DNA of 64,000 nucleotides from Candidatus Nomurabacteria bacterium (GCA_020631905.1 JACKGQ010000001.1:37854-101853); one strand, 5' to 3'; positions 30,000 through 46,308 are shown, counted from the stretch's first letter. The notes: a model not told the origin generated them from the sequence alone. Program-made: numbers and translations.

Positions 30000-30491
30000 C
30001 TACTTTTTCTTCTTTTCTTCTTCTTTAGACGACTTCGGGCGTCCGTAGTAAAGAATTAGGGAAATCATGATTGCCGCAATCCAGAGCGCGTATTCCTGGT
30101 AGGTTGAAATGGTTTGGTTAATGTTAGACGCAAGTAAATTATTACGCGTTTCATAAGATACGGCTAGTTGGACGATTAACCAGCCAACTATTACGATCGC
30201 CGGAGTTAAGAGTACCCCCATAATCCATAAGTGAGTTTTCTTAGTTGATTTCCGAGTTAGCAACAAAGCTGTTACGGCCGGTCCAAAACCCAGGAATATT
30301 GAGGTAGCTGCATCAATATTGTTGCTACCTACAGGCACAAGCGAGCGAGCAAACAATATCGCCTCATTGTTGGTCACATAGACCAATACCCAGCCGAAAG
30401 CCAACATACCTAACACCGACAGCATGTTCGATCGAAAATATAATGCCATCAGAGCTAACCCTGCTAAAGCAAAAAAGATTATGCTTTCCAC
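30000..30491 (-). CDS. hypothetical membrane protein (163 aa) with Lys/Glu tail
   Basis: About 5 TM helices. Ends in SKEEEKKKK. Confidence 0.5.
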   Translation of the reverse strand: MESIIFFALAGLALMALYFRSNMLSVLGMLAFGWVLVYVTNNEAILFARSLVPVGSNNIDAATSIFLGFGPAVTALLLTRKSTKKTHLWIMGVLLTPAIVIVGWLIVQLAVSYETRNNLLASNINQTISTYQEYALWIAAIMISLILYYGRPKSSKEEEKKKK

Positions 30492-30550
30492 AGGCTAAGC
30501 ATACCCCGAAAACGACCGATTGTCATTCTTGCAGCGCTAGCTTTAGCATT

Positions 30551-31618
30551 CTAGAGGGAGCTTGATGTTTTGCTCGCCAAGACCTTTTTAACAAAATGGG
30601 CGTACCTTTCGGTCTGGTCTTCAAAACCATGGTCCTCACCATGTAGCATGAAATATGAAACTCGATTTGGAAATTCGCGTTTAAGTCGCTGGGCATTTTC
30701 AAGTGTAGAGCCTGCTGGAGCTACAGTATCATTAGTTAAAACACCAATAGTTATATCTAAGTTCGGGTGGCGGTTCATCGCTTCAGTTCTTTGATCTAAA
30801 GCTGAGCCCATAGACATGCCCTTAGCGTAATCCAAAATTACTCCAGGGTGTCTAAAATATCTACCTAAATCAGCTAACTCTAGAGCAATACCGCCCAGAA
30901 AACTTTCACCATAGCCATAGGCTCCAACATGCTCGCCGTTATACGGGTGTAGGTGATCCGAGGTGTATAAGGCTTGTTGGACTTTTTCTGCATTCAGTAG
31001 TTGTCTTCGGCTGCGCTTGAGTTCAGATGGGCTAGCCATCACGAATACTTTTTCAACCTTGATCTTCTGGTCGGCCGCTGCTATCGCTAGACCCATGGCC
31101 AGCTCACTACCAAAAGAAAATCCAACAATGTTAATTAGCTCAACTCCGCATTCTCTAAGCACCTTGGTTGGCCCCTCCATAATCCCAGAGAAGACACCGA
31201 TCCTAGCGCGAGCTCGAGCAGACTTATTAGGCACTACAGATCTGCCAGTGCCAGGTGTGTTGAAACTAATCATTGGCATCTCGCAGGCTTCGGCTATCTT
31301 ATAGCCTTGATAGGCAATCGATCCTTTCTGTAATGTCGCTTCAAAACCCAGTAGCTGCACGAGCACCGGCTTGGTTGGGTCGAATCTTTCCCAGTTAAAT
31401 CTACGGAATTCTACACCTTGGATTGTTTCTGTTTCGGGAATTTTTGATTCGACTCTCTGCCACAGCTCAGCTGGATCTTGCTGGCTGCTTGCAATCGCTT
31501 GCATCAGATATTCTTGAGGCGTTAAACCTTGGAGTAGGTTAAACCTAGCCACCGGGCTATTCAACCTTGGTGAACTTTCGAAACTGTCTGTTAACTTTTG
31601 TTTTGATATTGATGGCAT
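30551..31618 (-). CDS. alpha/beta-hydrolase fold protein
   Basis: Nucleophile elbow GFSFGS (GxSxG). Late HGEDHGF fits a catalytic His region. Confidence 0.6.
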   Translation of the reverse strand: MPSISKQKLTDSFESSPRLNSPVARFNLLQGLTPQEYLMQAIASSQQDPAELWQRVESKIPETETIQGVEFRRFNWERFDPTKPVLVQLLGFEATLQKGSIAYQGYKIAEACEMPMISFNTPGTGRSVVPNKSARARARIGVFSGIMEGPTKVLRECGVELINIVGFSFGSELAMGLAIAAADQKIKVEKVFVMASPSELKRSRRQLLNAEKVQQALYTSDHLHPYNGEHVGAYGYGESFLGGIALELADLGRYFRHPGVILDYAKGMSMGSALDQRTEAMNRHPNLDITIGVLTNDTVAPAGSTLENAQRLKREFPNRVSYFMLHGEDHGFEDQTERYAHFVKKVLASKTSSSL

Positions 31619-31649
31619 AATACTATTATAGCATTTTTCACTATATTTT

Positions 31650-32159
31650 TCAATATTGAGTGTCTGATGACATATCTATGTTTAACCTATTGCCCAGGTA
31701 ATAGCCCCTGGCCTGTGCCTGACCAGCATTAATTTCTAATACATACTTCGCGGGCTTATCAGAAGTGTAGGTAACTTCGGGCATGGATCCTGCAGGTGGA
31801 GCGTTGTAAACTATGTCGACAATTCTAAAATCTGAGTCCATCCAAATGATATCGAGCGGAAAGTTCATATCTTTCATCCAGAAGCTATAATAATTTTCAG
31901 ATTCAAAAACAAACAGCATACCGCTCTCTTCATCCAATGTAGGACGACCAGACAAGCCTCGGCTCCGCTCCACGCTAGTTATCGCATATTCGAGATGTAT
32001 GCCCAAGCTAGTTGGCTGAGCTTGGTTGGTCGATATACTTTGTTGGTAAAGCAAAAGGCTTGAAGCCACACCAATCGCTGCCAGAACAACTATTAATAGG
32101 ATTACGCGGTTACTTCGTCTAAGCGCCGACTTTATCTTTACGATTTCTCTGCTTAGCAT
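31650..32159 (-). CDS. DUF192 (COG1430) family protein with N-terminal TM/signal anchor
   Basis: RSRGLSGR...GMLFVF...SFWMKDMNFPLDIIWMD pattern of DUF192. Overlaps the rimK 3' end by 41 nt. Confidence 0.7.
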   Translation of the reverse strand: MLSREIVKIKSALRRSNRVILLIVVLAAIGVASSLLLYQQSISTNQAQPTSLGIHLEYAITSVERSRGLSGRPTLDEESGMLFVFESENYYSFWMKDMNFPLDIIWMDSDFRIVDIVYNAPPAGSMPEVTYTSDKPAKYVLEINAGQAQARGYYLGNRLNIDMSSDTQY

Positions 32160-33018
32160 TGGCTTCTACATATTCGATAATTTTCGTGGCAATATCTACG
32201 CCAGTAATTGATTCTATGCCCTCTAATCCAGGTGCTGAATTGACTTCAAGTACCATCGGACCACTATTTGAGCGAATGATATCAACGCCACATATCGATA
32301 AGCCCATGCTTTTTGCCGCTCTGATAGCAAGATTCTTTTCTTCGGGAGTCATGAATGTTTTTTTACCTTGTCCACCCTGATGGATATTCGATCTAAAATC
32401 ATCATCTAGACTACGACGCTCATAGCAGGCGACCACTTGACCACCGATCACAAATGCGCGTATATCAGCACCGGCGGCTTCTTCGATATATTCCTGAAGT
32501 AAAAAGCTGGTGTCATTGACATAGAACGCCTGGATTACAGATTTCGCAGCTTTTCTTGTCTCGACCAGTACTACTCCATTACCCTGTGTACCACTTGCAA
32601 GCTTTAGAATCATGGGTAAGCCAATGTGGTCGATTAAGTCGTCGACTTCGGATGTTTGTCTAGAAAAGATTGTTTTCGGTATATTTACGCCGTATTTGCT
32701 CATAATTTGTAGTGAGCGCAATTTATCTCTTGAGCGACTAATTGCAATCGAGCGGGCAGTAGTGTAGACGCCCATCATCTCAAATTGCCTTACAATCGAA
32801 GAACCATATGGGGTTAGGCCTGGTAGGATTCTGGGTATTACAGCATCAACCCCTTTAAGGCTGCTCCCTCGGTAACGTACATCTGGTCGGTTTTTCTCTA
32901 TCTCTACATAACACTCTGGGAACTTTACGGTTTTGAATTCATGCCCACGTGCTTTTGCCGCCTCACGCAATCGCTTGACTGTGTAGCCGGGCTGTCTGGT
33001 TAATACAACTATCTTCAT
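32119..33018 (-). CDS. rimK: RimK-type ATP-grasp alpha-L-glutamate ligase
   Basis: Near full-length RimK pattern: SRDKLRSLQ, ILKLASGTQGNGV, LLQEYIEEAAGADIRAFVIGG, FRSNIHQGG, CGVDII...VLEVNSAPGLEGIE. Confidence 0.9.
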   Translation of the reverse strand: MKIVVLTRQPGYTVKRLREAAKARGHEFKTVKFPECYVEIEKNRPDVRYRGSSLKGVDAVIPRILPGLTPYGSSIVRQFEMMGVYTTARSIAISRSRDKLRSLQIMSKYGVNIPKTIFSRQTSEVDDLIDHIGLPMILKLASGTQGNGVVLVETRKAAKSVIQAFYVNDTSFLLQEYIEEAAGADIRAFVIGGQVVACYERRSLDDDFRSNIHQGGQGKKTFMTPEEKNLAIRAAKSMGLSICGVDIIRSNSGPMVLEVNSAPGLEGIESITGVDIATKIIEYVEANAKQRNRKDKVGA

Positions 33019-33920
33019 ATGCTTCCTTTCTCTATGGAATCTTTAACTGATTGTCTAAGTCGATTCAACTTCTCTTCGATATATGCTCCAGAAGTTAATT
33101 GTGGTACCGGGTTAACCTCTAAACATATGTAGGCTTTATACTTCTCTGCATAGACCAAGTCAACACCCCCCATCTCTCGTTCTAGAATCCTGGCAGCAGA
33201 TTCAGCCATATCTAGTGTGTCTTGGTCAATTTCATTAATTGAGATTACTTCTGCCAAACCACCTTGCGAAGTATTGTTTAGGTGACCTTGATTATTCGAA
33301 CTTCTACGGATTATCATAATCGGCTTGAAGTCTGCGCATATTAAACGTAGATCGTGATTATTCGGCACATACTCTTGCAAGAGCATCATACGATTACTGG
33401 TCGTTTTGGCCAAAGAGTCCGTAGGGTTAATAAGAAAATTATCATTCCCCCGACTCGTGGCCGCCGCTTTATAAACATAATCGCTGGCCCCATCGGCGTT
33501 CATCTGGGTAGCTAACCACTCTTTATCAACCGAGAACCATGTTTTTGGTATTTTAACTCCATTGATCGCCAGTTTCATCATTGCTGATAATTTAGTTGTA
33601 GACCGCTGGTGCAATACCTCGCTATTCCAACAACTTACGCCTTTGCTATTGGCATACAATGCGGCAGCATACGCTAGGTCCTTGTAATATACACCGCCGG
33701 CATTTGCATACCAGCCAAAGAAAAGAATCAAATTATAATCTTTAAGATCGACCCCATTTTTTGTTTGGACTAATGTATGTTCGTTACTAATCATAAACCT
33801 GAGGTCAGTATAATCTGCTGTATCTACCTCCATGTGCTCACTGAATGCCTCCCCGATCAACTCGGGGTCGTTTTTCGTTTTTAGGTTTGACCTACCAAGG
33901 ATTAATAATTTCTGCTTCAT
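33015..33920 (-). CDS. divergent ATP-grasp ligase (paralog B)
   Basis: LLQEYVPNNHDLRLI, GHLNNTSQGGLA, GGVDLV...CLEVNPVPQLTSG. ATGA overlaps on both sides (start at 33920 chosen). Confidence 0.8.
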   Translation of the reverse strand: MKQKLLILGRSNLKTKNDPELIGEAFSEHMEVDTADYTDLRFMISNEHTLVQTKNGVDLKDYNLILFFGWYANAGGVYYKDLAYAAALYANSKGVSCWNSEVLHQRSTTKLSAMMKLAINGVKIPKTWFSVDKEWLATQMNADGASDYVYKAAATSRGNDNFLINPTDSLAKTTSNRMMLLQEYVPNNHDLRLICADFKPIMIIRRSSNNQGHLNNTSQGGLAEVISINEIDQDTLDMAESAARILEREMGGVDLVYAEKYKAYICLEVNPVPQLTSGAYIEEKLNRLRQSVKDSIEKGSI

Positions 33921-34999
33921 GCTGTTCCCACTATTAACGATTCGAATTCTTCTACGTTCATCATATGACTTTCTAAGCTTTCCCACAATCTTAAGTTTGC
34001 GCCAAAATAGACCGCATCTTTAGTAAGTACAAACCCAGGGATATCTGAATGACCACCATTAAAAGCTCGAGCTGTTTCACAAAATGCTACTCGACTTGCC
34101 CCACCCTTGTCATGAAAACCTATAATCAATGTGGCCAATCTTACCAGTTCATAAACTTGCTTGAAATCACGTTTATTACCATCCACTCCCCAACCTAGTG
34201 CAACCGCAAGATACCTTAGGCTTCTTTTGTACATAAACCTCGTAAAGCTAAGTTGTTCGGCAAGCACTCCAATCCCCTCCTCGTCTAGGCTATATGGTAT
34301 GCCGTTCTGTCTGCGACCAACATGCACCAGCAGCTCATGGGCAAGCAGCCTAACCGCTCTAGATCTGTTAGTTATAAATTTACCATCAGGCACAAAAACT
34401 GTTTTCTGACTACCAACGATATAAAGCGCATTTCCCCTTTTTGCTTTTTTTATCTGCCAACCAAGATTTATTAGCCCAAGGCCCTCCATGACATTTCTTA
34501 CTGCCTCACCATAACTCATGCCCACCTCTACATTTGACCGTATGGTTCGGAGCTGGTTTTTAAAAATTCGATTAAACATCTTGCGATAGTAATCAAAGCA
34601 CTCGTCTGATGGCTTGTAGTGAGTGTTGAGTTTCAGGTCGATATCTACCAATTCACAGAATTTATCAAACAAGTTTTGCGTTTTAGTAGTAGCTGAACGT
34701 TGAGCAAGATAAGCAACAATTTCCTCTAGCCCTGCCATGTCAGGCGCGCCGTACTTCTCGGCCATTAATTTTCTGTACTTATCGACATCTCTAGAGATAC
34801 TGGCTTCGATTAAGTCAGCACTCAATTTATCGAATCTTGCTAGGTTCAACTTACTGCTATTTGTTAGTCTTAATCGCATATCAGGAAAACGAGTCTTATC
34901 TTGTAAGAATTTCTGACATTCCGCATCGAGGGTTTTGAGGCGACTAGCATTATAAAAACTTCTAAGCGACTTCATCTTACTTATCCAGTAGTTCACCAA
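33917..34999 (-). CDS. putative zinc metallopeptidase, DUF1704/MATCAP-like (HExxxH)
   Basis: LLAHELLVHVGRRQNG (HELLVH), then EEGIGVLAEQL (QEGLA-like motif). Embedded between ATP-grasp genes. Confidence 0.5.
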   Translation of the reverse strand: MVNYWISKMKSLRSFYNASRLKTLDAECQKFLQDKTRFPDMRLRLTNSSKLNLARFDKLSADLIEASISRDVDKYRKLMAEKYGAPDMAGLEEIVAYLAQRSATTKTQNLFDKFCELVDIDLKLNTHYKPSDECFDYYRKMFNRIFKNQLRTIRSNVEVGMSYGEAVRNVMEGLGLINLGWQIKKAKRGNALYIVGSQKTVFVPDGKFITNRSRAVRLLAHELLVHVGRRQNGIPYSLDEEGIGVLAEQLSFTRFMYKRSLRYLAVALGWGVDGNKRDFKQVYELVRLATLIIGFHDKGGASRVAFCETARAFNGGHSDIPGFVLTKDAVYFGANLRLWESLESHMMNVEEFESLIVGTA

Positions 35000-35894
35000 T
35001 ATATTTGTTAAAGGCTTGCATCTTTGTGTCTACAAACGATCCCGACAGTAGCTGAGGCGATGAGTTAACTTCAAGCACATAATATTCTCTGGTTGACTTG
35101 TTCATCAATATGTCGACGCCAGCAACTTCTATATTTGACTGAACCGCTGATTTTTCGGCCATTTGTATAACTTCACTTGGCAGCTTGTCTAGCTCGATTA
35201 AAGTAGCTTCTCCGCCAGCTGAAACATTATTAAGATGGCTACCACTTACAGCTCGACGATGAATGACTAATACTGCTCGGCCACCCAATACCAACACTCG
35301 ATAATCACCATCGTTTTCTATAAATGGCTGCACGACATAAGTAATCGTTGGATCTAGCTCCAAGACTCTTTTGAGTTGATCGATATCTGTTATCAGGTGA
35401 TTGTTTTTGCCCTTGCGACCAACAATATCTTTCAGGATAAAAGGATATGAGTATGGCAATTTATCTGCATTAGCAAGTTCGAGCAACAGTCTGTTCGAAG
35501 TATGAAAACTGGGTATAACTGGTATGTTGGCTTCTGCCCGCAGGCCATCACCAGACAGCTTCGAGTAAAAGCCCGACCGATACATTGAGTCGATATATGG
35601 CTTATCGGCTGCTTTCAGCGCCTGTACACACAGACTTACCTGGGTTCTGTTGTTGCGTGTTGTTCTAAAAAATACCAAATCATAATCACATATATTGTTG
35701 CCAGAGATATTATCAATCACTAGAGGTGATTTGCCTGTATTAACCTCAAATAACAGGTCTTCGAGGGTAGAAATATCAACCCGAAGGTTATCGATACCAG
35801 TTTCCATGGCGTCCTTGAATGGACCCAACGCGAGCGATTTTTTTGACGCAGGTCGAGCGTGCAGCAGGACTAGTACTTTTCGACTTGATTTCAT
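34977..35894 (-). CDS. divergent ATP-grasp ligase (paralog A)
   Basis: ILKDIVGRKGKNNHLI, VVQPFIENDGDYRVLVLGG, SHLNNVSAGGEA, AGVDIL...VLEVNSSPQLLSG. Confidence 0.8.
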   Translation of the reverse strand: MKSSRKVLVLLHARPASKKSLALGPFKDAMETGIDNLRVDISTLEDLLFEVNTGKSPLVIDNISGNNICDYDLVFFRTTRNNRTQVSLCVQALKAADKPYIDSMYRSGFYSKLSGDGLRAEANIPVIPSFHTSNRLLLELANADKLPYSYPFILKDIVGRKGKNNHLITDIDQLKRVLELDPTITYVVQPFIENDGDYRVLVLGGRAVLVIHRRAVSGSHLNNVSAGGEATLIELDKLPSEVIQMAEKSAVQSNIEVAGVDILMNKSTREYYVLEVNSSPQLLSGSFVDTKMQAFNKYIGELLDK

Positions 35895-35900
35895 GCTTAG

Positions 35901-35929
35901 ATTATGTCATACTTATGCAAATATGTCCA
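35901..35929 (-). promoter_or_regulatory. candidate promoter of the ATP-grasp operon (TGGACA-17-CATAAT, 6 nt from ATG)
   Basis: On the minus strand: TGGACA (35929..35924), 17-nt spacer, CATAAT (35906..35901), ATG at 35894. The -35 box overlaps the ATG of the divergent gene. Confidence 0.35.
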
Positions 35930-37206
35930 GTGTATTGATTGTTTCGAGGCCTAAAGTTCAGGATGGTTCTAGGCTAAACCTAAACTATAAAATCGGTGAT
36001 TACGAGCATACAATTCGGTTTGATTTTTTCCGCAACATTCCAGATACACAAGCTGTAACGAGTCTCTTGAATTGGCTTGCGCTGACCTATGCTACGTATA
36101 TCTTTGATATCGAATTTCCAGATGTCGTCGACGTCGAGTTTGCGCTAAGTGACGCAGAGAGGATATTCTTCGAAAAACTTTACGACCTTGGCATGCGCGA
36201 GTTCAAATACCTAAACAAGATCGAGGTCTCCAAAACTCCCACGATTAGTAGTCCTAGTAAAACACAGAAAACGTTTGGCAGCACAAAGACTCCTACAGCC
36301 CAAAAGGTCTTGTTAATGAATGGTGGCGGTAAAGACGGCGTAGCCGGGAGTGTAATTCTAGACTTAGCTGGTGTTGATTTTTCTTGGTTCTCGGTTAACC
36401 CCGGAGTAAGTCAGCTAAACATAGTAAACAAATCGACACAGGGATCGGTCAATGTTAAACGGGCTATTGGTAGACAAACTATATGGGAGCGAGCTCAATA
36501 CAAGGGCCACAAGCCTACGAGCTCAGGACTGGCGATTATTGGGCTACTAACTGCACTGATTTATGACTACACCGATATTGTAACTTCCAACGAGCAGGCT
36601 GCCAATGAAGCCACAATCATTCATAACGGATTTGCTGTCAACCACCAATACACAAAATCTGCGGAATTCGAGCAAGATCTGCAAGCGCTCTGCCACGAAC
36701 ACGGTATCAATATAAGATATTGGAGTATCCTAAGGCCACTAAAAGAAAACGAAATACTAAAGATAATTGAAAGACACCAACCAGCTTCCATTAGCCAGAT
36801 CACTAGTTGTAATCATGGTTTTTTAACAGGCACTTGGTGCTTAAACTGCACAAAATGTGCCTTTGTCGCGCTTTCTTTTGCAACTTACGCCCCGATAGCA
36901 TATGGCAAAATCTGGCCTATCAATCGCCCGTTAGACAATCTTGGTATTGTGCCCAGCTTAAAAGATCTGCTAGAAGCAGATAAACCTTTTGAATGTATTG
37001 GGACTTCCGACGAACTGACTGCGCTGTGCCAAGATTTTCTTAGTATATCAGCAGACGACACACCTGCAGAGGTTATGAATATTATAAATCAGAGGGCCTC
37101 TAGGCCACGCGTCGATCTCGAGCCTTATGACCCAAAACACTACACGCCAGACATACCAAAAAATATCATTGAGTCTGTAACAAAATTGGTCAAAAAACTA
37201 AATTAA
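35923..37206 (+). CDS. hypothetical 427-aa protein, possible PP-loop (adenine nucleotide alpha-hydrolase) fold with C-terminal Cys cluster
   Basis: The track N-terminus (35695) is antisense to the neighbouring gene, so the start was moved to MSSVLIV (35923; 35893 also possible). VLLMNGGGKDGVAGS resembles SGGxDS. SCNHGFLTGTWCLNCTKCAF is a Cys cluster. Confidence 0.4.
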   Translation: MSSVLIVSRPKVQDGSRLNLNYKIGDYEHTIRFDFFRNIPDTQAVTSLLNWLALTYATYIFDIEFPDVVDVEFALSDAERIFFEKLYDLGMREFKYLNKIEVSKTPTISSPSKTQKTFGSTKTPTAQKVLLMNGGGKDGVAGSVILDLAGVDFSWFSVNPGVSQLNIVNKSTQGSVNVKRAIGRQTIWERAQYKGHKPTSSGLAIIGLLTALIYDYTDIVTSNEQAANEATIIHNGFAVNHQYTKSAEFEQDLQALCHEHGINIRYWSILRPLKENEILKIIERHQPASISQITSCNHGFLTGTWCLNCTKCAFVALSFATYAPIAYGKIWPINRPLDNLGIVPSLKDLLEADKPFECIGTSDELTALCQDFLSISADDTPAEVMNIINQRASRPRVDLEPYDPKHYTPDIPKNIIESVTKLVKKLN

Positions 37207-38657
37207 TTTGAGATAACTTCGAAGTGCCTAGCATCTTCGAGATGGCGTGGGTTAGTGATATCGAACTTGGCTTTATCGCCTTCGTCGATGATACCCGGCC
37301 TTGCACGCTCGGCCTCCCAGACGAGGATATTACCTTCTAGATAAGCGATATCTTTTAGATATGCTCCACCTTTACCATCGGTGCCCTTTAAAGTTCGCTT
37401 TAGCAGGCTAACTGTTCTATCGTGCGCCTTTTTACGGGCAGCTGCAATAACCGCTTCTAGGCCTTCAGCCTCTAATGTTTCGGGCTTAACTTTTTTGATC
37501 TCTTGCAAGTAGTCTATGGCGTTAATAATTCGATACACCTCAGCAAATGATCGTTCCGTTGCTGCTTCGTTGCCATAACCTAAGCCAAGTGATATTGATA
37601 AGTGTCTGCGTAATATGTCATCCCAGCGTTTGCTTTTAGTAAACTCTTCTGGCGTTTCATAAGGCAGCTGCTCCATAACTACTGCGCGTCCTTCGTTGCC
37701 TAAAGCATAACGATCAGTTCCAATGCCATATAGCATTACTTTTTGTCTCAAACCATTACTTCGTTCGAGGCCGTGAGTCAGCTCGTGGACCGGTAGCCCA
37801 GTAAATCTATTGATTGGCATATTAATTTTCTTGGGCCTTTGGAGTCCTGGATTTTCTGGGTCATGAGTCATCGACCACGAAGCGGCACTTGCATCTAGGA
37901 TGTTATAGTTGGTCAGGCCGATGTTGTCTAAACCTACGCGCAAGATTGGATCGCCGACATCATTCGTAATCGGTCCTCGTGATGGTATATCAGCTCCCTC
38001 AAACATTAATGCAAATCTACCTGTTCCTTCGGCGAAGTGACGATCTCGGACGTCCAAGAATGTTTCTAGATCGGGCATTAATATGCTTGCGTCGGTACCC
38101 GAGGATGGTAATAAATCCAATACTGTACGAGCCGCTTCGGCAACATATGCGCGCTCGTCGTCTATAAGTCCGCCGGCGAGATCTGAATAATGGCTAGTTG
38201 TTGCTTCGAATATATCCTGACGCGGTCTTCCGTATACAAAGTAGTTATATAGTTCGAAAGCGCGAGCTGATTGACCTTTAGTCTTTTTGAGAGCCCCGGG
38301 CGTGGCTGCGAGTGCCATTCGAATATTGGCAACTAGTTCGTTGATTCGCAAAACATACATAGCCGACACCCTTTGATCTGGGTGTGTTTTAGCATCTTCC
38401 TTTAGGCTTAGTAGCTTGGACTCTAAAGCCTTGAGTTCCTCAATATCTTCAGGTAATAGTCTTGGTCGTAGATCGGGGTTGTGGTTACCGCCAGATTCTT
38501 CGAACTTTGCCAGTTCTTTTTCGAACTGCAATTTATTTGGTGTAAGTTTGGTGTAGACCTCGTCGGCAATAGATGCAATCGGCTCCAAATTAGCAAAAAG
38601 TTGCTCATCTAGCTTTTCGGGTTTATCTAGTACCAATAACATATTTGTATTATGCAT
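37203..38657 (-). CDS. putative zinc metallopeptidase, large DUF1704/MATCAP-like paralog (HExxH)
   Basis: GLPVHELTHGLERSNG, then LGNEGRAVVMEQLP, parallel to the motifs of the 360-aa protein. Stop overlaps the convergent 427-aa gene. Confidence 0.5.
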   Translation of the reverse strand: MHNTNMLLVLDKPEKLDEQLFANLEPIASIADEVYTKLTPNKLQFEKELAKFEESGGNHNPDLRPRLLPEDIEELKALESKLLSLKEDAKTHPDQRVSAMYVLRINELVANIRMALAATPGALKKTKGQSARAFELYNYFVYGRPRQDIFEATTSHYSDLAGGLIDDERAYVAEAARTVLDLLPSSGTDASILMPDLETFLDVRDRHFAEGTGRFALMFEGADIPSRGPITNDVGDPILRVGLDNIGLTNYNILDASAASWSMTHDPENPGLQRPKKINMPINRFTGLPVHELTHGLERSNGLRQKVMLYGIGTDRYALGNEGRAVVMEQLPYETPEEFTKSKRWDDILRRHLSISLGLGYGNEAATERSFAEVYRIINAIDYLQEIKKVKPETLEAEGLEAVIAAARKKAHDRTVSLLKRTLKGTDGKGGAYLKDIAYLEGNILVWEAERARPGIIDEGDKAKFDITNPRHLEDARHFEVISN

Positions 38658-38698: not shown

Positions 38699-38831
38699 TG
38701 ATAGGACAAATCTAATTTACACGTTTGTAAGCGAGGTAGAGTATTAGAGCCAAGATGGCTAATAACATAACAATGAGTGTAATAAAGCCGGAATTATTCT
38801 GCTTAAGCGATTTCACTTGCTAGAGTGTACT

Positions 38832-39914
38832 CTATAGCCAACGTTTTTTGCTACCAGAAAATTCTTCGAGCAAGTCTTTCTGTTTCTTGCTAAGTTTGGT
38901 TGGAGTCTCGACCACTACTGTTACAATATGCGGACCGCGACTTTCGCTACGGATATGTGGCACGCCGTGGCCAGAAAGCTTAAAGTCGGTGCCACTTTGA
39001 GTGCCTGCCGGAACTTTCATTTTGATTGGTCCATCGACTGTTTCAACCTCTATTTCTGTACCCAGTGCGGCTTCGACCATACCAATCTTCTCTTCGCTTA
39101 AGATTAAGTCCCCTTCTCGCGTAAAACGTTTGTGAGGTTTAACTCGAACATTCACAAACAGATCGCCTGCCGCACCTTTACTGGTTGCTTCGCCGTGTTC
39201 ACGTAAACGAATGATTGCACCATCATCGATGCCAGCAGGAACCTTTAGGATGACTTCTTTTTCTTTGCGCTGCGTACCTTTACCACCACAGACCGAACAA
39301 TTTTGCTCAGGAATTTCACCCTCGCCATGACATTTACTGCAAACGGTCGCTTGCTGCATATTGCCAAAAACCGTTCGCATTACGCGTATTTCTTGACCGC
39401 TACCATTGCAAGTATCACATTTCTTGAGTTCATGGCCAGGCTCGGCGCGTTTGCCTTTACAGTGTTCACAAACACCTTCAAGATTCAGTGAGATTTTCTT
39501 TTCGGTTCCAAAAACAGCCTCTTCAAAGCTGAGCTCAATCGCGACCTCAACATCTCGACCTCTTTCGGGCTGAGCACTACGCGCTCCACCCATACCACCA
39601 CCAAAGAAGCTACCAAAGATATCGCCCAAACCTCCCTCACCAAAGTCAAAGTGGAATTCTTGCCCACCAAAACCATTAAAGCCACCCCCAGCAGCTCCGC
39701 CGCCAACACCGGCATGACCAAACTGATCGTAGCGTTGTTTTTTGTCGGGGTTGCTTAAGACCTCGTTGGCCTCGTTGATCTCCCGAAACTTTTCTTCGTC
39801 GCCACCTTGATCGGGGTGATATTTAACTGCAAGTCGACGGTATGCCTTCTTAATTTCATCGGCCGAGGCACTCTTGTCGATACCTAATACTTCGTAATAA
39901 TCTCGTTTAGACAT
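38832..39914 (-). CDS. dnaJ: chaperone DnaJ
   Basis: J domain (DYYEVLG...KYHPD), Gly-rich linker, four CxxCxGxG zinc motifs. Start moved to MSKRDYY. Confidence 0.96.
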   Translation of the reverse strand: MSKRDYYEVLGIDKSASADEIKKAYRRLAVKYHPDQGGDEEKFREINEANEVLSNPDKKQRYDQFGHAGVGGGAAGGGFNGFGGQEFHFDFGEGGLGDIFGSFFGGGMGGARSAQPERGRDVEVAIELSFEEAVFGTEKKISLNLEGVCEHCKGKRAEPGHELKKCDTCNGSGQEIRVMRTVFGNMQQATVCSKCHGEGEIPEQNCSVCGGKGTQRKEKEVILKVPAGIDDGAIIRLREHGEATSKGAAGDLFVNVRVKPHKRFTREGDLILSEEKIGMVEAALGTEIEVETVDGPIKMKVPAGTQSGTDFKLSGHGVPHIRSESRGPHIVTVVVETPTKLSKKQKDLLEEFSGSKKRWL

Positions 39915-39925
39915 ATATTTCAATT

Positions 39926-39952
39926 TTAGCACTTAACGGCCTTGAGTGCTAG
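39926..39952. promoter_or_regulatory. CIRCE-like HrcA operator upstream of dnaJ
   Basis: TTAGCACTT-N9-GAGTGCTAG versus consensus TTAGCACTC-N9-GAGTGCTAA (2 mismatches). Confidence 0.7.
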
Positions 39953-39975
39953 CATTTTTGAGTTATCATAATTGG

Positions 39976-40563
39976 ATGAAACGAGTTAATCGCAACATTA
40001 AATTCTTTCTGGCTTCTGACGTTTTCTTTTACTCAAGTTACGACCTTATCAGTGTTTTCTTGACTGTTCTAATTACCACAAGCATAACTAATGGTAGCCT
40101 AGATGCAGTTGGCATAGTCCTGGGTTATGCTCTAATTCTTAGAGCATTTTCGGAGTTGGCATTTTCTAAAATGCTGCAAAATCTATCGAGCAAAAACAAG
40201 ATTCGTTTCATAAGTCTTGGAAACGTCCTGTATGGAGTTACATTAATATGTATGGGTTTTGCTTCTTCGCTGTTCACCATATATATCTTTCAAACTATTT
40301 TAGCGCTAATTGATGCTTCGACTTATCCGTTGAAATGGGCATTGTTTTCTAAAATCTTAGATAAAGGCAACGAGGAATTCGAATGGAGTCTAGAAGACAT
40401 TGGGGCAACCACCGCCGCGGCAATATTTGCAGTAATCGGAGGTTTTGTATCCCAAATTTATGGCCTAAGCGTTACATTTAGTATGATCGGTGCGACCTTC
40501 GTAATTTGTGGTTTTATATTCCACTTTATAAAAATCAGAGAGCACAAGCGAAGTCTAAAATAG
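39976..40563 (+). CDS. six-helix membrane protein, half-size MFS-like
   Basis: Six hydrophobic helices in about 195 aa. Start moved to MKRVNRN. Weak MFS-like appearance only. Confidence 0.4.
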   Translation: MKRVNRNIKFFLASDVFFYSSYDLISVFLTVLITTSITNGSLDAVGIVLGYALILRAFSELAFSKMLQNLSSKNKIRFISLGNVLYGVTLICMGFASSLFTIYIFQTILALIDASTYPLKWALFSKILDKGNEEFEWSLEDIGATTAAAIFAVIGGFVSQIYGLSVTFSMIGATFVICGFIFHFIKIREHKRSLK

Positions 40564-41298
40564 ACTGTTCCAATAGTAGTCAAATCGGAAATAAATAAGC
40601 AAAATAACCACTGCGTACATACTTATAAGCAGAGTCAGGTGATACTTTTCAAAGAGTGAGGCTATCTGCTTTGGAAGTTTAATATGCTTCTGTAGATGAG
40701 CGTAAAGAGTCAGGTACACAAAAGTTGGAATCACCACCGTCCAGGTCATCATGCAGTAGATACATAGAGCATTCAACTCGTAGAGTGCTTGGCTGATAAA
40801 CCAGACAACCGACAACAACCCAAGTACCCCGGCAGCCCACATTACCTGCCAGAACCACTTCTTATATTTTGCGCCAGCTAGAGCACCAAAAGCCACGCTC
40901 AAGAGTGCTCCAAACGCAGCCGTGCCGAGCAGTGGGTTTGGTGGTCCAAGCACCTGGCCCTGATCCGAGCCAATCGAAGATGTGCACGAAACGATAGGGC
41001 TAACGCTGCAGCTGGCAATATGGTTGGTGTCTTTAAGTGTCTTGATCTCTTCGACAGTAAGGTTAATCGAAGCCACCAGCCCAAATGCTGCAACAAGGAT
41101 TAAAAAATACGGGAGTAGTAAGTTTAACTTCTCTTTTAGACTGCTCGCGTTGCTACTAATGCCACGCCAAAGCCATAACTCTAGTAACAGAGTTAATAGA
41201 GCACCGATTAAGACTGCCCAGATGTGTTCGCTCACAAAAAAGACTGCGTACACAACATAAGCGAGTGGCAAGCTAGCCGAAATGGATTGTTTGTTCAT
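40555..41298 (-). CDS. vitamin K epoxide reductase (VKOR) family protein
   Basis: Loop cysteines CSVSPIVSC and active-site CIYC in a TM helix. Four or five TM helices. Confidence 0.75.
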   Translation of the reverse strand: MNKQSISASLPLAYVVYAVFFVSEHIWAVLIGALLTLLLELWLWRGISSNASSLKEKLNLLLPYFLILVAAFGLVASINLTVEEIKTLKDTNHIASCSVSPIVSCTSSIGSDQGQVLGPPNPLLGTAAFGALLSVAFGALAGAKYKKWFWQVMWAAGVLGLLSVVWFISQALYELNALCIYCMMTWTVVIPTFVYLTLYAHLQKHIKLPKQIASLFEKYHLTLLISMYAVVILLIYFRFDYYWNSLF

Positions 41299-41367
41299 CT
41301 AGCAAATATTCTACACTGCCAGTCTATGCCTAGGCTAGTAATGTAACTAAAATGTTGCCAGCCTTAT

Positions 41368-41393
41368 GGAAATTTAATTTAAATTAAATTTCG
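41368..41393. repeat. 26-bp AT-rich palindrome, copy 1 (25/26)
   Basis: GGAAATTTAATTTAAATTAAATTTCg. A perfect copy lies at 57884..57909. Confidence 0.9.
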
Positions 41394-41418
41394 AGTAGAA
41401 AGCTGAGCCAACAGTTAT

Positions 41419-41790
41419 TTAGTTTTCAACAATCTCACCATCTATGGCTTTGTCATATTTAGATCCAGATTTTTGGCGGTTTTTGTAGGCTTTTTTAATT
41501 TGTGAACGGACGAGTCGACCAGTAAGAGAAATCCCTACTATCAAGGCTAGAACCCCGACCAACCAGATAGATATATATGTAATCGGGAAAGATTCTTGCC
41601 ACCAGTAAATAAACGGAAATAACGTCGCCAGCGGCGGTAAAAGTAGTGCCGCGATTATGCCCAGCAAGCCCCACCACTTGAGGAACCAATAAATCATGAA
41701 CAGCCACATGGTTATGCCACTGAGCACGAATGTTAAGTAGCCAAGCAGCGCCGGGGCACTAAGTCCTATCGCTTTTGTACTATTCTTCAT
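41419..41790 (-). CDS. hypothetical membrane protein (123 aa)
   Basis: Three or four TM helices with a basic C-terminal tail. 4-nt overlap with the GNAT gene. Confidence 0.5.
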   Translation of the reverse strand: MKNSTKAIGLSAPALLGYLTFVLSGITMWLFMIYWFLKWWGLLGIIAALLLPPLATLFPFIYWWQESFPITYISIWLVGVLALIVGISLTGRLVRSQIKKAYKNRQKSGSKYDKAIDGEIVEN

Positions 41791-42323
41791 TTAATCCTCC
41801 TGTCGTACTTATAGTACTGCATACCTTCGAAATCTACCTCTCCTTCTGGCTCAAAGCCAGCCTTCATTAATGATTTAACACTAGCTTGATTATCTGGCTC
41901 AACCCCAGCTTCGAAAACAACAACGTTGGCAAGTTCTGGCATGTCCAACAGATTTCTTAGCATCTTAGCAGCCAACCCCTTGCCTCTTTGGGCAGGATCA
42001 ACCATAAAGGTTATGCCGGCAGTGAGAACATCTTCGGCAGACAACACACCTTGCTCGCCACTTGCATCGATACCCCAGACCACATATTTATCGCTAATGC
42101 CTGCATCGATAAAGCCAACTGCCTTCTCGTCCTCCGTAACAATATACGGATGATACGAAATTCGCTTGGCACCCCTAAACTCCGTGCCAACTGGTTCGCT
42201 TAGTAATCTTTCAACATTATCTAGCCAGGTTTTATCACCTAGCCATTTTCTTGTTTGGCTATCTGAGTACCAATTACTAATTTTAGCCAAGTCTTCTGAT
42301 TGATACGGCCTGAGTTCTATCAT
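41787..42323 (-). CDS. GNAT family N-acetyltransferase
   Basis: Acetyl-CoA motif A: VDPAQRGKGLAAKMLRNLL. Confidence 0.8.
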   Translation of the reverse strand: MIELRPYQSEDLAKISNWYSDSQTRKWLGDKTWLDNVERLLSEPVGTEFRGAKRISYHPYIVTEDEKAVGFIDAGISDKYVVWGIDASGEQGVLSAEDVLTAGITFMVDPAQRGKGLAAKMLRNLLDMPELANVVVFEAGVEPDNQASVKSLMKAGFEPEGEVDFEGMQYYKYDRRIK

Positions 42324-42368
42324 ATTTGAGGGTTAAAAAAGCTCGGGTTTTGTGCCGAGCAATTTTAA

Positions 42369-44330
42369 TTATTCTTCGACGACTTCGCCTTCGACGGCAT
42401 CGTCGCCTTTCTTTTGCTTCTCGCGCTTGGTTTTAGCGTTGTCTTTTTTGTCGCCTTCATCAGACTTAGACTCTCCACCTTCGGCAGAAGCTGCCTCTTC
42501 GGCTTGCTTAGCTTCGTACAGCTTGGCACCGATTGGCATAATCTTATCGTTTAGCTCTTTGGCGGCTGCCTCGAGTTTGTCTTTGTCGGCTTCTGACTCT
42601 TCAAGCGCCTTCTTAGCCTCGGCAACAGCCTCGTCGAGAGCTTTGATGTCGGCTTCTTCGAGCTTGTCTTTACCCTCTTCTTTAAACTTCTCGGCCTGGT
42701 AAATAGCACTGTCGAGTTGGTTGCGTGACTCAATGCTTTCGCGCTTTTTCTTATCTTCTTCGGCGTGAGCTTCGGCCTCTTTTTGAGCCTTTTCGATATC
42801 TTCTTTGCTCATATTGCCAGAGTCACTGATGGTGATGCTTTGCTCTTTGCCTGTGCCTTTGTCTTTGGCGCTCACATTTAGAATACCGTTAGCGTCGATC
42901 TTAAAGGTAACTTCGATTTGCGGGATACCGCGTGGAGCTGGCGCAATGCCAGTTAGCTGGAATGTGCCAAGCTTTTTGTTGTCGGCAGCCATCTCGCGCT
43001 CACCTTGGAGCACCACGATCTCGACACCGGGCTGGTTGTCGGCAGCGGTACTGAAAGTTTCGCTCTTACTGGTCGGAATGGTTGTGTTGCGGTCTATCAG
43101 ATTGGTTTTAACGCCTCCCAGCGTTTCGATTCCGAGACTAAGTGGGGTAACGTCTAGAAGTAGCACGTCCTTAACCTCGCCTGCCAAAACTCCACCCTGG
43201 ATAGCTGCGCCTAAAGCGACAACTTCGTCTGGGTTTACACCTTTCATTGGCTCTTTACCAAAAATCTCTTCGACCTTCTTCACCACAGCCGGCATGCGGG
43301 TCATACCACCAACTAGCACGACAGCATCGATGTCGCTCTTGCTAATTTTGGCGTCTTTCATAGCCTTTTCGCAAGGCTCAGCTGTCTTGGCGATCAGATC
43401 ACCAACCATGTCTTCGAGCTTGGCTCGAGTTAGCTGGTATTCAAAGTGAACCGGACCATCTTCGTTGGCCGTTAAGAACGGCATGTTGATACTAACTTCT
43501 TGGCTAGTGCTTAGTTCGATCTTGGCTTTTTCGGCCTCGTCGCGCATGCGCTGCATAGCGGCTTTGTCTTTGGTTAGGTCGATACCGTTTTCTTTTTTGA
43601 ACTCATCTAGCAAGTGGTTAACGATTACGCGATCGAAGTCAGCGCCACCGAGGTGAGTATCGCCATTGGTACTCTTAACTTCGAATACACCGTCGCCGAG
43701 CTCCAGAATAGAGACGTCGAAAGTACCACCACCTAGGTCGTAAACAGCAATTTTTTCATCTTTCTTGCCCTCTTTGTCTAGACCATAAGCTAAGGCAGCG
43801 GCCGTCGGCTCGTTGATAATTCTTTTTACTTCTAGGCCAGCAATCTTACCGGCGTCTTTGGTAGCCTGACGTTGGCTGTCGTCGAAATATGCAGGTACAG
43901 TAATGACTGCTTCGGTGACAGGCTCGCCTAAGTAGGCTTCGGCATCGGCCTTGAGCTTACCTAAGATCATCGCGCTAACTTCTTCTGGGCTGTATTCGCT
44001 ATCGCCCATCTTAACTTTTACGGCACTGCCACTTTTAACGATTTCGTAAGGCATTAGATCGATATCTTTTTGAACCTCTTTGTCGTCAAACTTACGTCCG
44101 ATGAGTCGTTTAACCTCGAAAACTGTATTACTTGGATTAGTAACTGCTTGACGGCGCGCGATTGCGCCAACGATTCGTTCTTCTTTGCCGTCTTTGTTCT
44201 TTTTTACGGCAACTACACTTGGGGTTGTGCGACTACCTTCGCTATTGGCAATTACATCAGCTTTACCAGATTGCATGACTGCCATTGCAGAGTTAGTCGT
44301 TCCAAGATCGATTCCAATGATTTTTCCCAT
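42369..44330 (-). CDS. dnaK: chaperone DnaK (Hsp70)
   Basis: [17 protein letters not shown], full-length Hsp70 with an acidic C-terminal tail. Start moved to [10 protein letters not shown]. Confidence 0.98.
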
Positions 44331-44361
44331 TTTAAGATAACCCTTTCTTAAAGATTCATAA

Positions 44362-44388
44362 TTTAGCACTCTAAATGGTACTGTGCTA
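44362..44388. promoter_or_regulatory. CIRCE-like operator, proximal copy upstream of dnaK
   Basis: TTAGCACTC-N9-CTGTGCTAA (left arm perfect, right arm 2 mismatches). Confidence 0.6.
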
Positions 44389-44410
44389 AAAATATTGTAG
44401 CATACATAAA

Positions 44411-44437
44411 TTAGCAGTCAACACAGGCGAGTGCTAA
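44411..44437. promoter_or_regulatory. CIRCE operator, distal copy upstream of dnaK
   Basis: TTAGCAGTC-N9-GAGTGCTAA (1 mismatch). Confidence 0.75.
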
Positions 44438-44782
44438 TTATAATCCACTGTCAAAATGGGAATAATCAGGAATTATAGGTACAGGGTTGCGATTTTCAGG
44501 ACAACTACCGATTTGGTCGTCAAAATAATATAGGCTGGGGCTAGGATCTAGACTGCCCGATACAGTGCAGCCTTCGGTTTGAGTTTTCGACACCTCAAGT
44601 GGTGTCATATAGCCTTTACCGGCAATAGCAAGTGCGACAGTGAGCCGACCGCACTTATGTCTGCAGGCTGGCCTAATTCTCTCGGACCTAAAGCCCGATT
44701 CCCTAGGTTGACGCAGATCTAGTCGTATACTTTGCCAAAAAGGGCATTCTGCGCAGACTTTTTGAGCTGCTAGATATTCCAT
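44438..44782 (-). CDS. hypothetical Cys-containing protein (114 aa)
   Basis: ORF with CAEC near the N-terminus and five further Cys. The stop abuts the CIRCE element. No family recognised. Confidence 0.35.
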   Translation of the reverse strand: MEYLAAQKVCAECPFWQSIRLDLRQPRESGFRSERIRPACRHKCGRLTVALAIAGKGYMTPLEVSKTQTEGCTVSGSLDPSPSLYYFDDQIGSCPENRNPVPIIPDYSHFDSGL

Positions 44783-44805
44783 CTGGTTATTTTAATATGT
44801 TTTAG

Positions 44806-45003
44806 CTATTTAAACAATCTAATGATGTGGCGAACATAAAAGGGTAAGCTATATAGAATCACGATATAAAGAAATAGCTGGAGACCACTTTGCCATAAGT
44901 AGATGTCGTTGAATATCCATGTACCCGTTAGTGCATAGAAGCTAGTCCATAGAAATATGCAGAAAAGAGTTAAATGTGAATACCTGGATTGGAGTATTTT
45001 CAT
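44806..45003 (-). CDS. small membrane protein (65 aa)
   Basis: Two hydrophobic helices. Confidence 0.35.
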   Translation of the reverse strand: MKILQSRYSHLTLFCIFLWTSFYALTGTWIFNDIYLWQSGLQLFLYIVILYSLPFYVRHIIRLFK

Positions 45004-45008
45004 CTGTC

Positions 45009-45572
45009 TTACAACTCTACCTGGTTTGAGACAATCGTGCTACCTAAAAATCTTGAAGTATGACCAGCAGTCTGTAGCTGCGCGAGATCAGATATTATGG
45101 CTAGCTCGGTGTAGCGTAAGTCGGTGCGACCAGCAACAACCGCATTGAAGTTGTTGTGAATCCGCTCGAATTCATCGCAAACACAGGTAGTGGGTGAATT
45201 ACCCTTCCAAACCTTAATTGCCTCAACAAAGTGTCTTTCAAATAATGTGCGTGCGCAATCGGCTGGCATAGTTTCTGATACAGCACCCGTAAAGTGCAGA
45301 CAGGCAGAAAGTAGGCGTAGCTTAACACGGAAATCGTATAAGGCCACAAGCTCGATCATATCTGGTGATTCCGCAACCAGAGTGAAAAATATATCTTCTA
45401 GCTTTTCGGCAATCTTACCATCGCTAACTTCAACTCCACGCAACAGACCTTCGTACATACTGACACCTAGAATATGCATGCTTTGAATTGTGTCCTGGTA
45501 TCTTGTCCAGAATTCAGTATGTTGTGTTGGAAATAACTCTTCGCGAGCAAAATTTGGAACAACTTCGGCCAT
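45009..45572 (-). CDS. hypothetical protein (187 aa)
   Basis: ORF starting 2 nt after the grpE stop. No motif recognised. Confidence 0.5.
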   Translation of the reverse strand: MAEVVPNFAREELFPTQHTEFWTRYQDTIQSMHILGVSMYEGLLRGVEVSDGKIAEKLEDIFFTLVAESPDMIELVALYDFRVKLRLLSACLHFTGAVSETMPADCARTLFERHFVEAIKVWKGNSPTTCVCDEFERIHNNFNAVVAGRTDLRYTELAIISDLAQLQTAGHTSRFLGSTIVSNQVEL

Positions 45573-45574
45573 GG

Positions 45575-46066
45575 CTAGCGAGTTACTTTTACCATCGCCA
45601 CCCGAATTACTCTGCCATTTAGCCGGTAGCCACGTTGCAACTCTTCACTAACAACTTCATGGCCGTTACCGCCTTCTTCGACGGCTACTGCTTCCATTAA
45701 CTCTGGGTCAAAATCTTTGCCAACGGTTTCGATTACCTCTAGACCAAACTCAGTCATTAAACTTTCTAGTTGCTTATCGAGTGCTTTGACACCTTGAGCC
45801 CACTTATTGTCGTCGAGCTCAGCTGGCATGTGAGCGAATGCCCGATGCAAATTATCAATTAATGGCACCAATTGACCAACAGCGATTTCCTTACCGGTGG
45901 CTAGAGCTGCAATCCGATCGCTTTCGGCCCGTTTGCGAATGTTTTCGGCATCGGCTCGCTCGCGCTGAAGGGCTTCGGTTAGGTCGGCTAACTGTTGCTG
46001 CAACATCTCGTTATTACTAACATTTTGATTTTTGGTTTTATGTTGGTTATTTTCTCTTCTTGCCAC
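45575..46066 (-). CDS. grpE: nucleotide exchange factor GrpE
   Basis: Coiled-coil N-terminus plus C-terminal GYRLNGRVIRVAMVKV, typical of GrpE. Confidence 0.92.
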   Translation of the reverse strand: MARRENNQHKTKNQNVSNNEMLQQQLADLTEALQRERADAENIRKRAESDRIAALATGKEIAVGQLVPLIDNLHRAFAHMPAELDDNKWAQGVKALDKQLESLMTEFGLEVIETVGKDFDPELMEAVAVEEGGNGHEVVSEELQRGYRLNGRVIRVAMVKVTR

Positions 46067-46308
46067 TATTTTACCCTCGTAAACATTTCATTTAGACCGT
46101 CTATACACTCTTGGAGTGCTTCTGTGCCAAGAACTTCTCTAGAGACTACCCTAAGCTGGTCATATTGTAAGCCTCGATCATTTCCTGGCATCAAATCTGC
46201 AGCACTTCCTAACATTGCTAGCCTAAACGCGTGATCAGCAAGATCAGGATCGCCTACAATCCCATAGGCACGCTTTAGGACGCGTCTGGCTTCGGTAGTG
46301 CTAGACAT
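46066..46308 (-). CDS. hypothetical protein (about 80 aa) between hrcA and grpE
   Basis: ORF with its stop overlapping the grpE start. Start chosen at MSSTTEARR. Confidence 0.4.
   Translation of the reverse strand: MSSTTEARRVLKRAYGIVGDPDLADHAFRLAMLGSAADLMPGNDRGLQYDQLRVVSREVLGTEALQECIDGLNEMFTRVK

Follow-up and report, generated by a model that had tools for sequence, protein, structure and literature searches.

Why should one bacterial operon encode three ATP-grasp ligases, and are two of them simply further copies of the third? The question is raised by a gene cluster (30000-38657) within a 64,000-nucleotide (nt) stretch of DNA from Candidatus Nomurabacteria bacterium (GCA_020631905.1, JACKGQ010000001.1:37854-101853); the whole stretch is referred to here as the window, and positions are counted from its first letter. 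On the minus strand, a canonical RimK of 299 amino acids (aa), an alpha-L-glutamate ligase (32119..33018), is accompanied by two ATP-grasp paralogues, A (33015..33920; 301 aa from the ATG at 33920, the longest open reading frame (ORF) starting from GTG 33986) and B (34977..35894; 305 aa), which are identical to KC878_02175 and KC878_02165, respectively; the analysis placed the window in a Candidatus Saccharibacteria genome. An earlier reading of the DNA, made from its sequence alone (the sequence-only reading), had held that A and B share a signature distinct from that of RimK, and that three different ligases in one coupled operon point to stepwise or substrate-specific additions. As described below, A and B are firmly distinguished from ordinary RimK duplicates and very probably form part of a RimK sister family that had not been described before, designated here the HLNN family, which to date has been detected only in Saccharibacteria and further Patescibacteria.

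Placement of ligases A and B and their active sites

Translation of the three genes gave the motifs as they had been quoted, namely FRSNIHQGG (32371-32397) and VLEVNSAPGLEGIE (32212-32253) in RimK, HLNNTSQGG (33258-33284, minus strand) and LEVNPVPQLTSG (33087-33122, minus strand) in A, and HLNNVSAGG (35211-35237, minus strand) and LEVNSSPQLLSG (35040-35075, minus strand) in B. In A, the first motif stands in place of FRSNIHQGG of RimK and the second in place of LEVNSAPGLEGIES, with five residues deleted. The signature HLNN(T/V)S(Q/A)GG plus LEVNxxPQLxSG, proposed as common to A and B and distinct from RimK, was borne out as a family consensus, which reads THLNNTSQGG and LEVNAIPQLTSG in the A-type (38 homologues) and SHLNNTSQGG and LEVNSxPQL in the B-type (33 homologues). 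Within the set used for the tree described below, the pattern [HY][LM][NS]N...G[GA] was present in all members of the non-RimK ligase clade (60/60) and FR[SA]N in all canonical RimKs (21/21), and every canonical RimK examined carried FR(S/A)N...GG and (S/A)PG(L/F). An exhaustive profile search yielded 1,108 clusters (50% identity) at E<=1e-30, and 118 of the 142 further representatives inspected from it also had the HLNN motif. A ligase of the HLNN type (SHLNNISAGA, FEVNETPSI) was also found fused in tandem to a different ATP-grasp domain (DFRTNATE, AEVNIPCNF) in a single protein of 626 aa (P0346).

Both paralogues matched the Pfam RimK domain (PF08443, cutoff 21 bits) with 51.8 bits for A and 72.2 bits for B, no other Pfam domain passing, and the same domain was matched by 33/33 B-type and 36/38 A-type homologues. 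When compared with the more specific models, A and B remained below the cutoffs, with 87 and 75.2 bits, respectively, for TIGR00768 (cutoff 143.4) and 32 and 41 bits for NF007764 (cutoff 331). The RimK of the window passed both (277 and 331.6 bits, respectively) and matched Pfam RimK and Rimk_N; its identity amounts to 49% with E. coli RimK and to 56-76% with the RimKs of other Saccharibacteria. No curated model was found for the HLNN family, and nothing linking Saccharibacteria to RimK or ATP-grasp enzymes was found in the searchable literature.

The N-terminal domains of A and B had been described as different from that of RimK and from each other. This held to the extent that neither protein matched Pfam Rimk_N (PF18030), but not as a difference in fold, as A, B and RimK appeared homologous over their full length in hhalign comparisons, and both hhalign and Foldseek aligned the N-terminal domain of A and B to that of RimK. 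With that domain included, hhalign gave E=4e-82 for A vs. B (293 columns), 2.6e-24 for A vs. RimK and 4e-35 for B vs. RimK. Searches of the PDB with the family profiles returned RimK first (E of ~1e-23 for B and ~1e-13 for A), followed by LysX and ArgX. AlphaFold models, with predicted local distance difference test (pLDDT) values of 95.0 for B and 92.6 for A, led to the same relatives in Foldseek (ArgX, RimK and LysX on top for B; RimK, ArgX and LysX on top for A; ~300 aligned columns in each case), with graspetide ligases ranking after them.

In a neighbour-joining (NJ) tree with groups set by motif, the HLNN proteins were placed apart from RimK, with A and B in different subclades; earlier groups based on hidden Markov models (HMMs), in which a few divergent ATP-grasp genes had been misassigned, were not strictly monophyletic. 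More than 115 homologues were found for A, all of ~300 aa and with 34-50% identity, and about 60 close homologues for B, many of them with a fused RimB-like PF05618 domain. The A and B orthologues were separately conserved within the same genomes, at 35-40% identity, and a scan of one genome per species detected 156 relatives, with 80 of the 80 listed loci titled as Saccharibacteria, other Patescibacteria or unnamed bacterium. A and B very probably represent two separately conserved lineages of a sister family, in agreement with the earlier claim that they are not redundant copies of RimK. Some points weigh against this placement: the bootstrap values were moderate (51 for HLNN, 60 for A and 75 for B, of 100), the tree was built by NJ only and without LysX, MptN, CofF or TTL sequences, and the taxonomic restriction was derived from a motif-pattern scan.

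To compare the active sites, residues were mapped onto E. coli RimK numbering, with roles taken from the literature (PMC10375531, PMC10092738). K141, R189, R203, N213, G217, D248, E260 and N262 showed no variation across RimK, A, B and the remaining HLNN ligases (>100 sequences), R189 being the residue that binds the C-terminal carboxylate that gets phosphorylated (PMC10375531, PMC10092738). This invariance of the ATP, Mg and acyl-phosphate residues suggests that A and B are probably active carboxylate-amine ligases working through an acyl-phosphate.

The surroundings of this conserved core were found to be rebuilt. The lid of the HLNN ligases shows the changes F210H, R211L, S212N, H215S and G266Q, plus the deletion of five residues after L267. 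The window RimK has all the belt and site arginines (R8, R64, R96, R98, R102, R189 and R211). From the poly-Glu belt R96/R98/R102, only R106, the R96 equivalent, is left in A; B retains none of the three, with G108, Y110 and S114 at these positions. Over the wider set R8/R64/R96/R98/R102, A keeps only the R96 equivalent and B only the R64 equivalent. R64 is the residue that fixes the incoming glutamate by its side chain (PMC10375531, PMC10092738); the position of R64 is occupied by R77 in B and by F68 in A, where it is followed by an inserted and invariant W70-Y71. Counting against these assignments of R64 and of the belt, the underlying alignments of the N-terminal domains have ~20% identity, with MAFFT and hhalign in agreement.

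The charge of the proteins also differs. The median net charge is +13 for Saccharibacteria RimKs (+11 for that of the window) and -5 for both the A-type and the B-type ligases. Taken together, the rebuilt lid (H-L-N-N-T-S for F-R-S-N-x-H and PQL for PGLEG), the loss of the belt and the acidic charge suggest that the HLNN ligases handle substrates other than the poly-Glu tail of RimK. As for the residues that would be added, L-Glu for B and a non-acidic residue for A are tentative assignments from the pocket residues. The acidic charge of A and B also argues against their action on the poly-Glu product of RimK, making a simple relay from RimK to A or B doubtful, and it weakens the idea of stepwise addition onto the acidic RimK product. 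When the other proteins of these clusters were included, a basic set (RimK +13, free RimB +8 and the short MATCAP-like peptidases described below +6) and an acidic set (HLNN ligases -5, long MATCAP-like peptidases -15 and the 450-504 aa MATCAP-like proteins of the RimB-type loci -22) were apparent from the median net charges. This split may reflect two kinds of substrate.

Peptidases and a MurL-like gene beside the ligases

The genes surrounding the ligases were compared across 85 loci, in which ORFs were called as longest ORFs and families were assigned with our own HMMs. In about 60 loci the order was an HLNN ligase, a RimB-like retropepsin (a free protein, or a domain fused at either end), then RimK, DUF192 (in about half of them) and a small membrane protein, mem160. 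In about 21 loci, including the window, it was short MATCAP-like peptidase, A, RimK, DUF192 and mem160, often with B and a long MATCAP-like peptidase upstream. The short MATCAP/DUF1704-like zinc peptidase of the window (33917..34975, minus strand; 352 aa from ATG 34975 or 360 aa from TTG 34999) is the partner of A, and in 20 loci the corresponding gene lies directly upstream of A, with a median gap of -4 nt. Other median gaps were -2.5 nt from A to RimK and -4 nt from RimB to RimK. In the window, ATGA overlaps join the short MATCAP-like gene to A and A to RimK, so that A is overlapped at both ends, and 1 nt separates the stop codon of B from the next ATG. Thus, the ligases form a translationally coupled operon, as had been claimed. 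A long MATCAP/DUF1704-like zinc peptidase (37203..38657, minus strand; 484 aa) is encoded further upstream; such a gene follows B in six loci, and that of the window is 39% identical to the 464-aa gene following B in locus L003.

Both peptidases passed the cutoff of Pfam PF08014 MATCAP (27 bits), with 31.7 bits for the short one (360 aa) and 28.3 bits for the long one. The short-family profile had as its top PDB match human MATCAP (7z5g, E=4.9e-4), with HExxxH, the EEGxA zinc ligand and the C-terminal KDxxYL aligned. The corresponding motifs are HELLVH (34322-34339) and EEGIGVLAE (34256-34282) in the short protein, and HELTH (37773-37787) and NEGRAVVME (37671-37697) in the long one. The short MATCAP-like orthologues were gathered from the loci with our own HMMs, a word-index protein search giving two matches; H213, E214, H218 and E233 were invariant in 21 of them, and the zinc and downstream-Glu motif pairs were kept in nearly all orthologues of both families and aligned to 7z5g. 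These conserved motifs suggest that the MATCAP-like enzymes may remove terminal residues.

The position of these peptidases is informative, as the same slot beside an HLNN ligase and RimK is held either by a RimB-like or by a MATCAP-like protein. RimB is proven to act as a protease on poly-Glu tails and stimulates RimK as well (PMC11957791), and the interchange of both peptidase types is the main argument for ligase/eraser pairs. The cluster thus resembles the RimK-RimB system (RimABK, involved in S6 polyglutamylation in Pseudomonas, and the RimB-RimK hybrids) in having an ATP-grasp ligase beside a protease that trims its product; indeed, most of the Saccharibacteria loci use the RimB-like domain itself, free or fused, beside an HLNN ligase and RimK, and the window has a bona fide RimK. 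It differs in that a second and a third ligase of another subfamily have been added, these being acidic and without the poly-Glu belt, in that the peptidase of the window is a MATCAP/DUF1704-like metalloenzyme instead of a retropepsin, and in the absence of RimA.

A MurL-like gene (35923..37206, plus strand; 427 aa, with an alternative ATG at 35893) is divergent from B. The encoded protein matched the MurL model NF041275 with E=4.8e-38 and 130.8 bits, far under the cutoff of 700, and MurL_N and MurL_epimerase_C (PF26299, PF26298) were recognised on its orthologues in loci L001 and L003. At least 52 of 80 metagenomic MurL-like relatives adjoin MurD. The MurL-like genes adjacent to B-type HLNN ligases, from 14 loci including L086-L090, form their own clade (bootstrap 53, with metagenomic and genome loci pooled), in which the usual MurD neighbour has been exchanged for these ligases. 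In locus L038 the MurL-like gene (6571-7896) lies inside the operon, between two ligase genes and overlapping the next one. By analogy with MurL, whose gene is known in a MurD2-MurL arrangement and whose only known substrate is a small nucleotide-linked peptide (PMC8788868), the MurL-like protein is a predicted ATP-dependent epimerase of terminal L-Glu. As MurL epimerises the terminal L-Glu just added by the neighbouring ligase, the same analogy suggests that the B-type ligase probably adds L-Glu. The pair formed by B and the MurL-like gene is reminiscent of MurD2-MurL of Xanthomonas, in which an L-Glu-adding ligase stands next to an ATP-dependent terminal-Glu epimerase of the MurL family, although the neighbour in the window is a RimK-like ATP-grasp enzyme and not a Mur ligase, and the MurL-like protein belongs to its own clade, far below the equivalog cutoff. 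In another locus (L164, Ga0316209_1000131), a RimB-like retropepsin gene was seen directly upstream of a MurL-MurD pair.

The three-ligase stepwise picture of the sequence-only reading left out both MATCAP/DUF1704-like peptidases, one between A and B and one upstream, and also the divergent MurL-like epimerase. Once these are included, the cluster looks like a set of ligase-plus-eraser pairs, as in RimK-RimB, and not like a pure assembly line.

The two genes downstream of RimK are also recurrent. The DUF192 protein (31650..32159, minus strand; Pfam PF02643, E=1e-28) has an N-terminal membrane or signal segment, and its gene follows RimK in 39 loci with a median gap of -41 nt. Its PDB relatives are only the uncharacterised 3m7a and 3pjy, and no functional paper on DUF192 was found in the searchable literature. 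The small membrane protein mem160 (30000..30491, minus strand; ~160 aa, with a basic C-terminal tail) is the conserved last gene of the cluster, present in 72/85 loci, RimK-less ones included. It is multi-pass, with no Pfam family and no transporter family recognisable in it, and its C-terminal tail is rich in K, H and R, the last residue being H in 32, K in 19 and R in 10 of the 72 proteins (61/72). Finally, in four loci an L-amino-acid-ligase-type protein (ATP-grasp_4 + LAL_C2, 437-452 aa) occupies the place of RimK beside an HLNN ligase and mem160 (L022, 9175-10488; L023, 8930-10249; L033, 9692-11050; L056, 10022-11341). Enzymes of this type belong to another ATP-grasp branch, absent from the window, and this replacement suggests that they have an equivalent role to RimK in starting a peptide.

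Proposed role of the cluster and competing explanations

The explanation that we favour, with moderate confidence, is that the cluster encodes ligases of distinct specificity coupled to erasers, which would extend and trim the C-terminus of a peptide, instead of redundant RimK copies. Each ligase would attach a single defined residue at the alpha-carboxyl terminus of a peptide. B, with its Glu-side-chain arginine kept and its link to the MurL-like gene, would add L-Glu, which the MurL-like enzyme could convert to D-Glu; A, with a hydrophobic and aromatic pocket (F68, W70, Y71), would add a non-acidic residue; and the MATCAP-like enzymes would take off terminal residues. As to the acceptor, the leading candidate, although less probable than not, is a short free peptide begun by RimK, or by the L-amino-acid ligase in the variant loci, which would agree with this variant, with MurL and with the envelope proteins. 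A protein tail, that of ribosomal protein S6 or of another protein, appears less likely; S6 would fit with the conserved, basic RimK, and rpsF, sought with E. coli S6 and S18 queries, was found neither in the window nor in any of the 165 fetched loci. The tail of mem160, which is basic and faces the cytoplasm, is a candidate acceptor for the acidic enzymes, and the operon's own membrane protein in this role is, in our estimate, rather unlikely. A cell-wall precursor is improbable.

A more specific version, which we consider unlikely, is a C-terminal tail code, in which the three ligases, the two MATCAP-like carboxypeptidases and the MurL-like epimerase would write, cap (D-Glu included) and erase a short peptide tail on a protein, either S6 or mem160. 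If true, the tubulin glutamylation/tyrosination cycle would have a counterpart in prokaryotes, and the MATCAP erasers a possible bacterial origin. The known tubulin system, TTL/TTLL plus MATCAP (KIAA0895L), likewise opposes a C-terminal-tail ATP-grasp ligase to a MATCAP-family zinc peptidase; however, the ligases of the window are on the RimK/LysX branch, so the likeness lies in the working logic and in the eraser family, not in the writer family.

A closer kinship with that system, with A and B as a bacterial TTL family and the cluster as a true homologue of the tubulin tyrosination/detyrosination cycle, is very unlikely. Both ligases adjoin MATCAP-like peptidases, H-L-N-N is presumably comparable to the H-L-T-N motif of TTL, and Pfam TTL (PF03133, cutoff 20.1) was matched by 22/33 B-type and 9/38 A-type proteins, the best with 36.7 bits, and not by RimK. 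Yet B and A of the window scored 19.5 and 15.7 bits, respectively, and the best-matching stretches were short: in most B-type proteins they comprised ~40 residues at and near LEVNxxPQL, and in A and P0011 a segment at about residues 110-185. TTL/TTLL chains were absent from the 60 B-profile PDB matches listed (49 further ones at E<=1 lay outside the list), from the complete set of 19 A-profile matches and from the 50 best Foldseek matches of each model. TTL family membership was rejected on the basis of these listed PDB matches, the Foldseek top 50 and the ~40-residue extent of the Pfam TTL matches. That A and B are ordinary redundant RimK duplicates polyglutamylating S6 is very unlikely. Their Pfam RimK domain, RimK as their closest PDB relative, their co-transcription with RimK and the R64 equivalent kept in B would agree with it, but they score under the RimK-family cutoff, have lost R211, H215 and the R96/R98/R102 belt, have an inverted charge and fall in a clade apart from RimK. 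Moreover, in genomes in which the separate A and B orthologues are 35-40% identical, RimK is 71-76% identical; between these genomes, identity is only 30-40% for A, B, the peptidases and DUF192. A Glu pocket conserved as in an ordinary duplicate is not found in A and is retained in B only in part, as R77. An even lower probability is given to a LysX/ArgX-like function, in which an amino acid would be added onto the C-terminal glutamate of a small carrier protein. LysX and ArgX rank near the top in the structural comparison, the third-best NCBIfam match is LysX, and A and B share with LysX/ArgX, MptN and CofF the three-domain fold, the catalytic residues and comparable NCBIfam scores; each of these enzymes attaches just one, defined residue to its particular carboxylate and does not polymerise. 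Nevertheless, A and B reach none of their cutoffs (TIGR02144, ~52 bits vs. 275.6), have distinct HLNN and PQL motifs, lack the basic belt used there for the acidic LysW tail and are not linked to carrier or cofactor genes, the packed cluster being without a LysW-like acidic zinc-ribbon gene or downstream LysY, LysZ, LysJ and LysK-type enzymes in the 85 loci. A LysW-like carrier gene was sought in the cluster of the window as well, and none was found. The least probable of these readings sees in A and B paralogues of RimK that have lost catalysis and serve as regulators or scaffolds; the loss of R211 and of the belt arginines would be compatible with it, but the ATP, Mg and acyl-phosphate residues are invariant in >100 sequences and the new motifs are strongly conserved, which argues for selection on a working active site.

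A different kind of alternative, which we hold to be possible but on the doubtful side, is that the product of the cluster is a free oligopeptide of non-ribosomal origin or a modified cell-envelope precursor. RimK, or the L-amino-acid ligase, would start from free amino acids, A and B would extend the chain, the MurL-like enzyme would make a terminal D-Glu, the peptidases would edit the length, and DUF192 and mem160 would handle or export the product. ATP-grasp ligases acting on cell-wall precursors exist, for example the D-aspartate ligase of Enterococcus. Support comes from the four loci in which an ATP-grasp_4 + LAL_C2 protein replaces RimK, from the small peptide that is the known MurL substrate (PMC8788868), from RimK and RimB being known makers of free poly-alpha-Glu (PMC11957791) and from a secreted DUF192 and a membrane protein being the constant last genes of the cluster. 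Some of this evidence weighs against the ligase-plus-eraser explanation as applied to a protein tail, since the replacement of RimK by the L-amino-acid-ligase type fits free-peptide synthesis better than protein modification, and a secreted DUF192 and a membrane protein are left unexplained by purely cytosolic tail editing. On the other side, mem160 has no recognisable transporter family, the cluster has no Mur ligase gene, the nearest structural relatives of A and B (RimK, LysX, ArgX and the graspetide ligases) act on proteins or ribosomal peptides, and the RimK of the cluster scores as an S6-ligase equivalog and is conserved at 56-76% identity, as expected of a ribosome-linked enzyme.

Whichever the acceptor, the HLNN proteins make up a large branch of the RimK family that has had no name and whose active site is rebuilt. 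Within the searchable literature, in which nothing was found linking MATCAP/DUF1704 to ATP-grasp enzymes, this cluster is also the first genomic context that ties bacterial MATCAP/DUF1704 peptidases to amino-acid ligases, and it could explain the role of these peptidases outside eukaryotes. In addition, a clade of predicted MurL-like epimerases is revealed that appears to have exchanged peptidoglycan synthesis for another partner. If the proposed logic of ligase, eraser and epimerase is true, bacteria would possess a reversible modification of peptide tails of a new type. An important function is suggested by the wide retention of the cluster in the tiny genomes of Saccharibacteria, usually just downstream of dnaK-dnaJ.

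Position behind dnaJ and lineage-specific genes

The minus-strand cluster of the window is placed downstream of hrcA-grpE-dnaK-dnaJ (38832-47020). The same position was found in 58/85 loci, with the ligase/peptidase cluster at most 3.5 kilobases (kb) downstream of dnaJ, on the same strand and behind hrcA-grpE-dnaK. As this adjacency to dnaJ is kept though the cluster proteins are only 30-40% identical, it hints at co-regulation of the cluster with the heat-shock operon.

Between DUF192 and mem160, the window genome alone carries an alpha/beta-hydrolase-like gene (30551..31618, minus strand; weak Pfam Abhydrolase_1 match), with no counterpart in the 84 other loci and with a TATAAT-like element of its own upstream. 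This gene is lineage-specific and probably lies outside the core of the cluster.

At the other border, a small ORF of ~35 aa (38712-38816, minus strand; GTG start), which reads MKSLKQNNSGFITLIVMLLAILALILYLAYKRVN, encodes a single-pass membrane peptide straight after dnaJ and ahead of the ligase cluster. A similar ORF was detected in L001 (6545-6658) and behind dnaJ in L053, L057, L069, L075 and L076, the motif common to these post-dnaJ ORFs being GFI(T/P)(M/L)IV...Y.RV.

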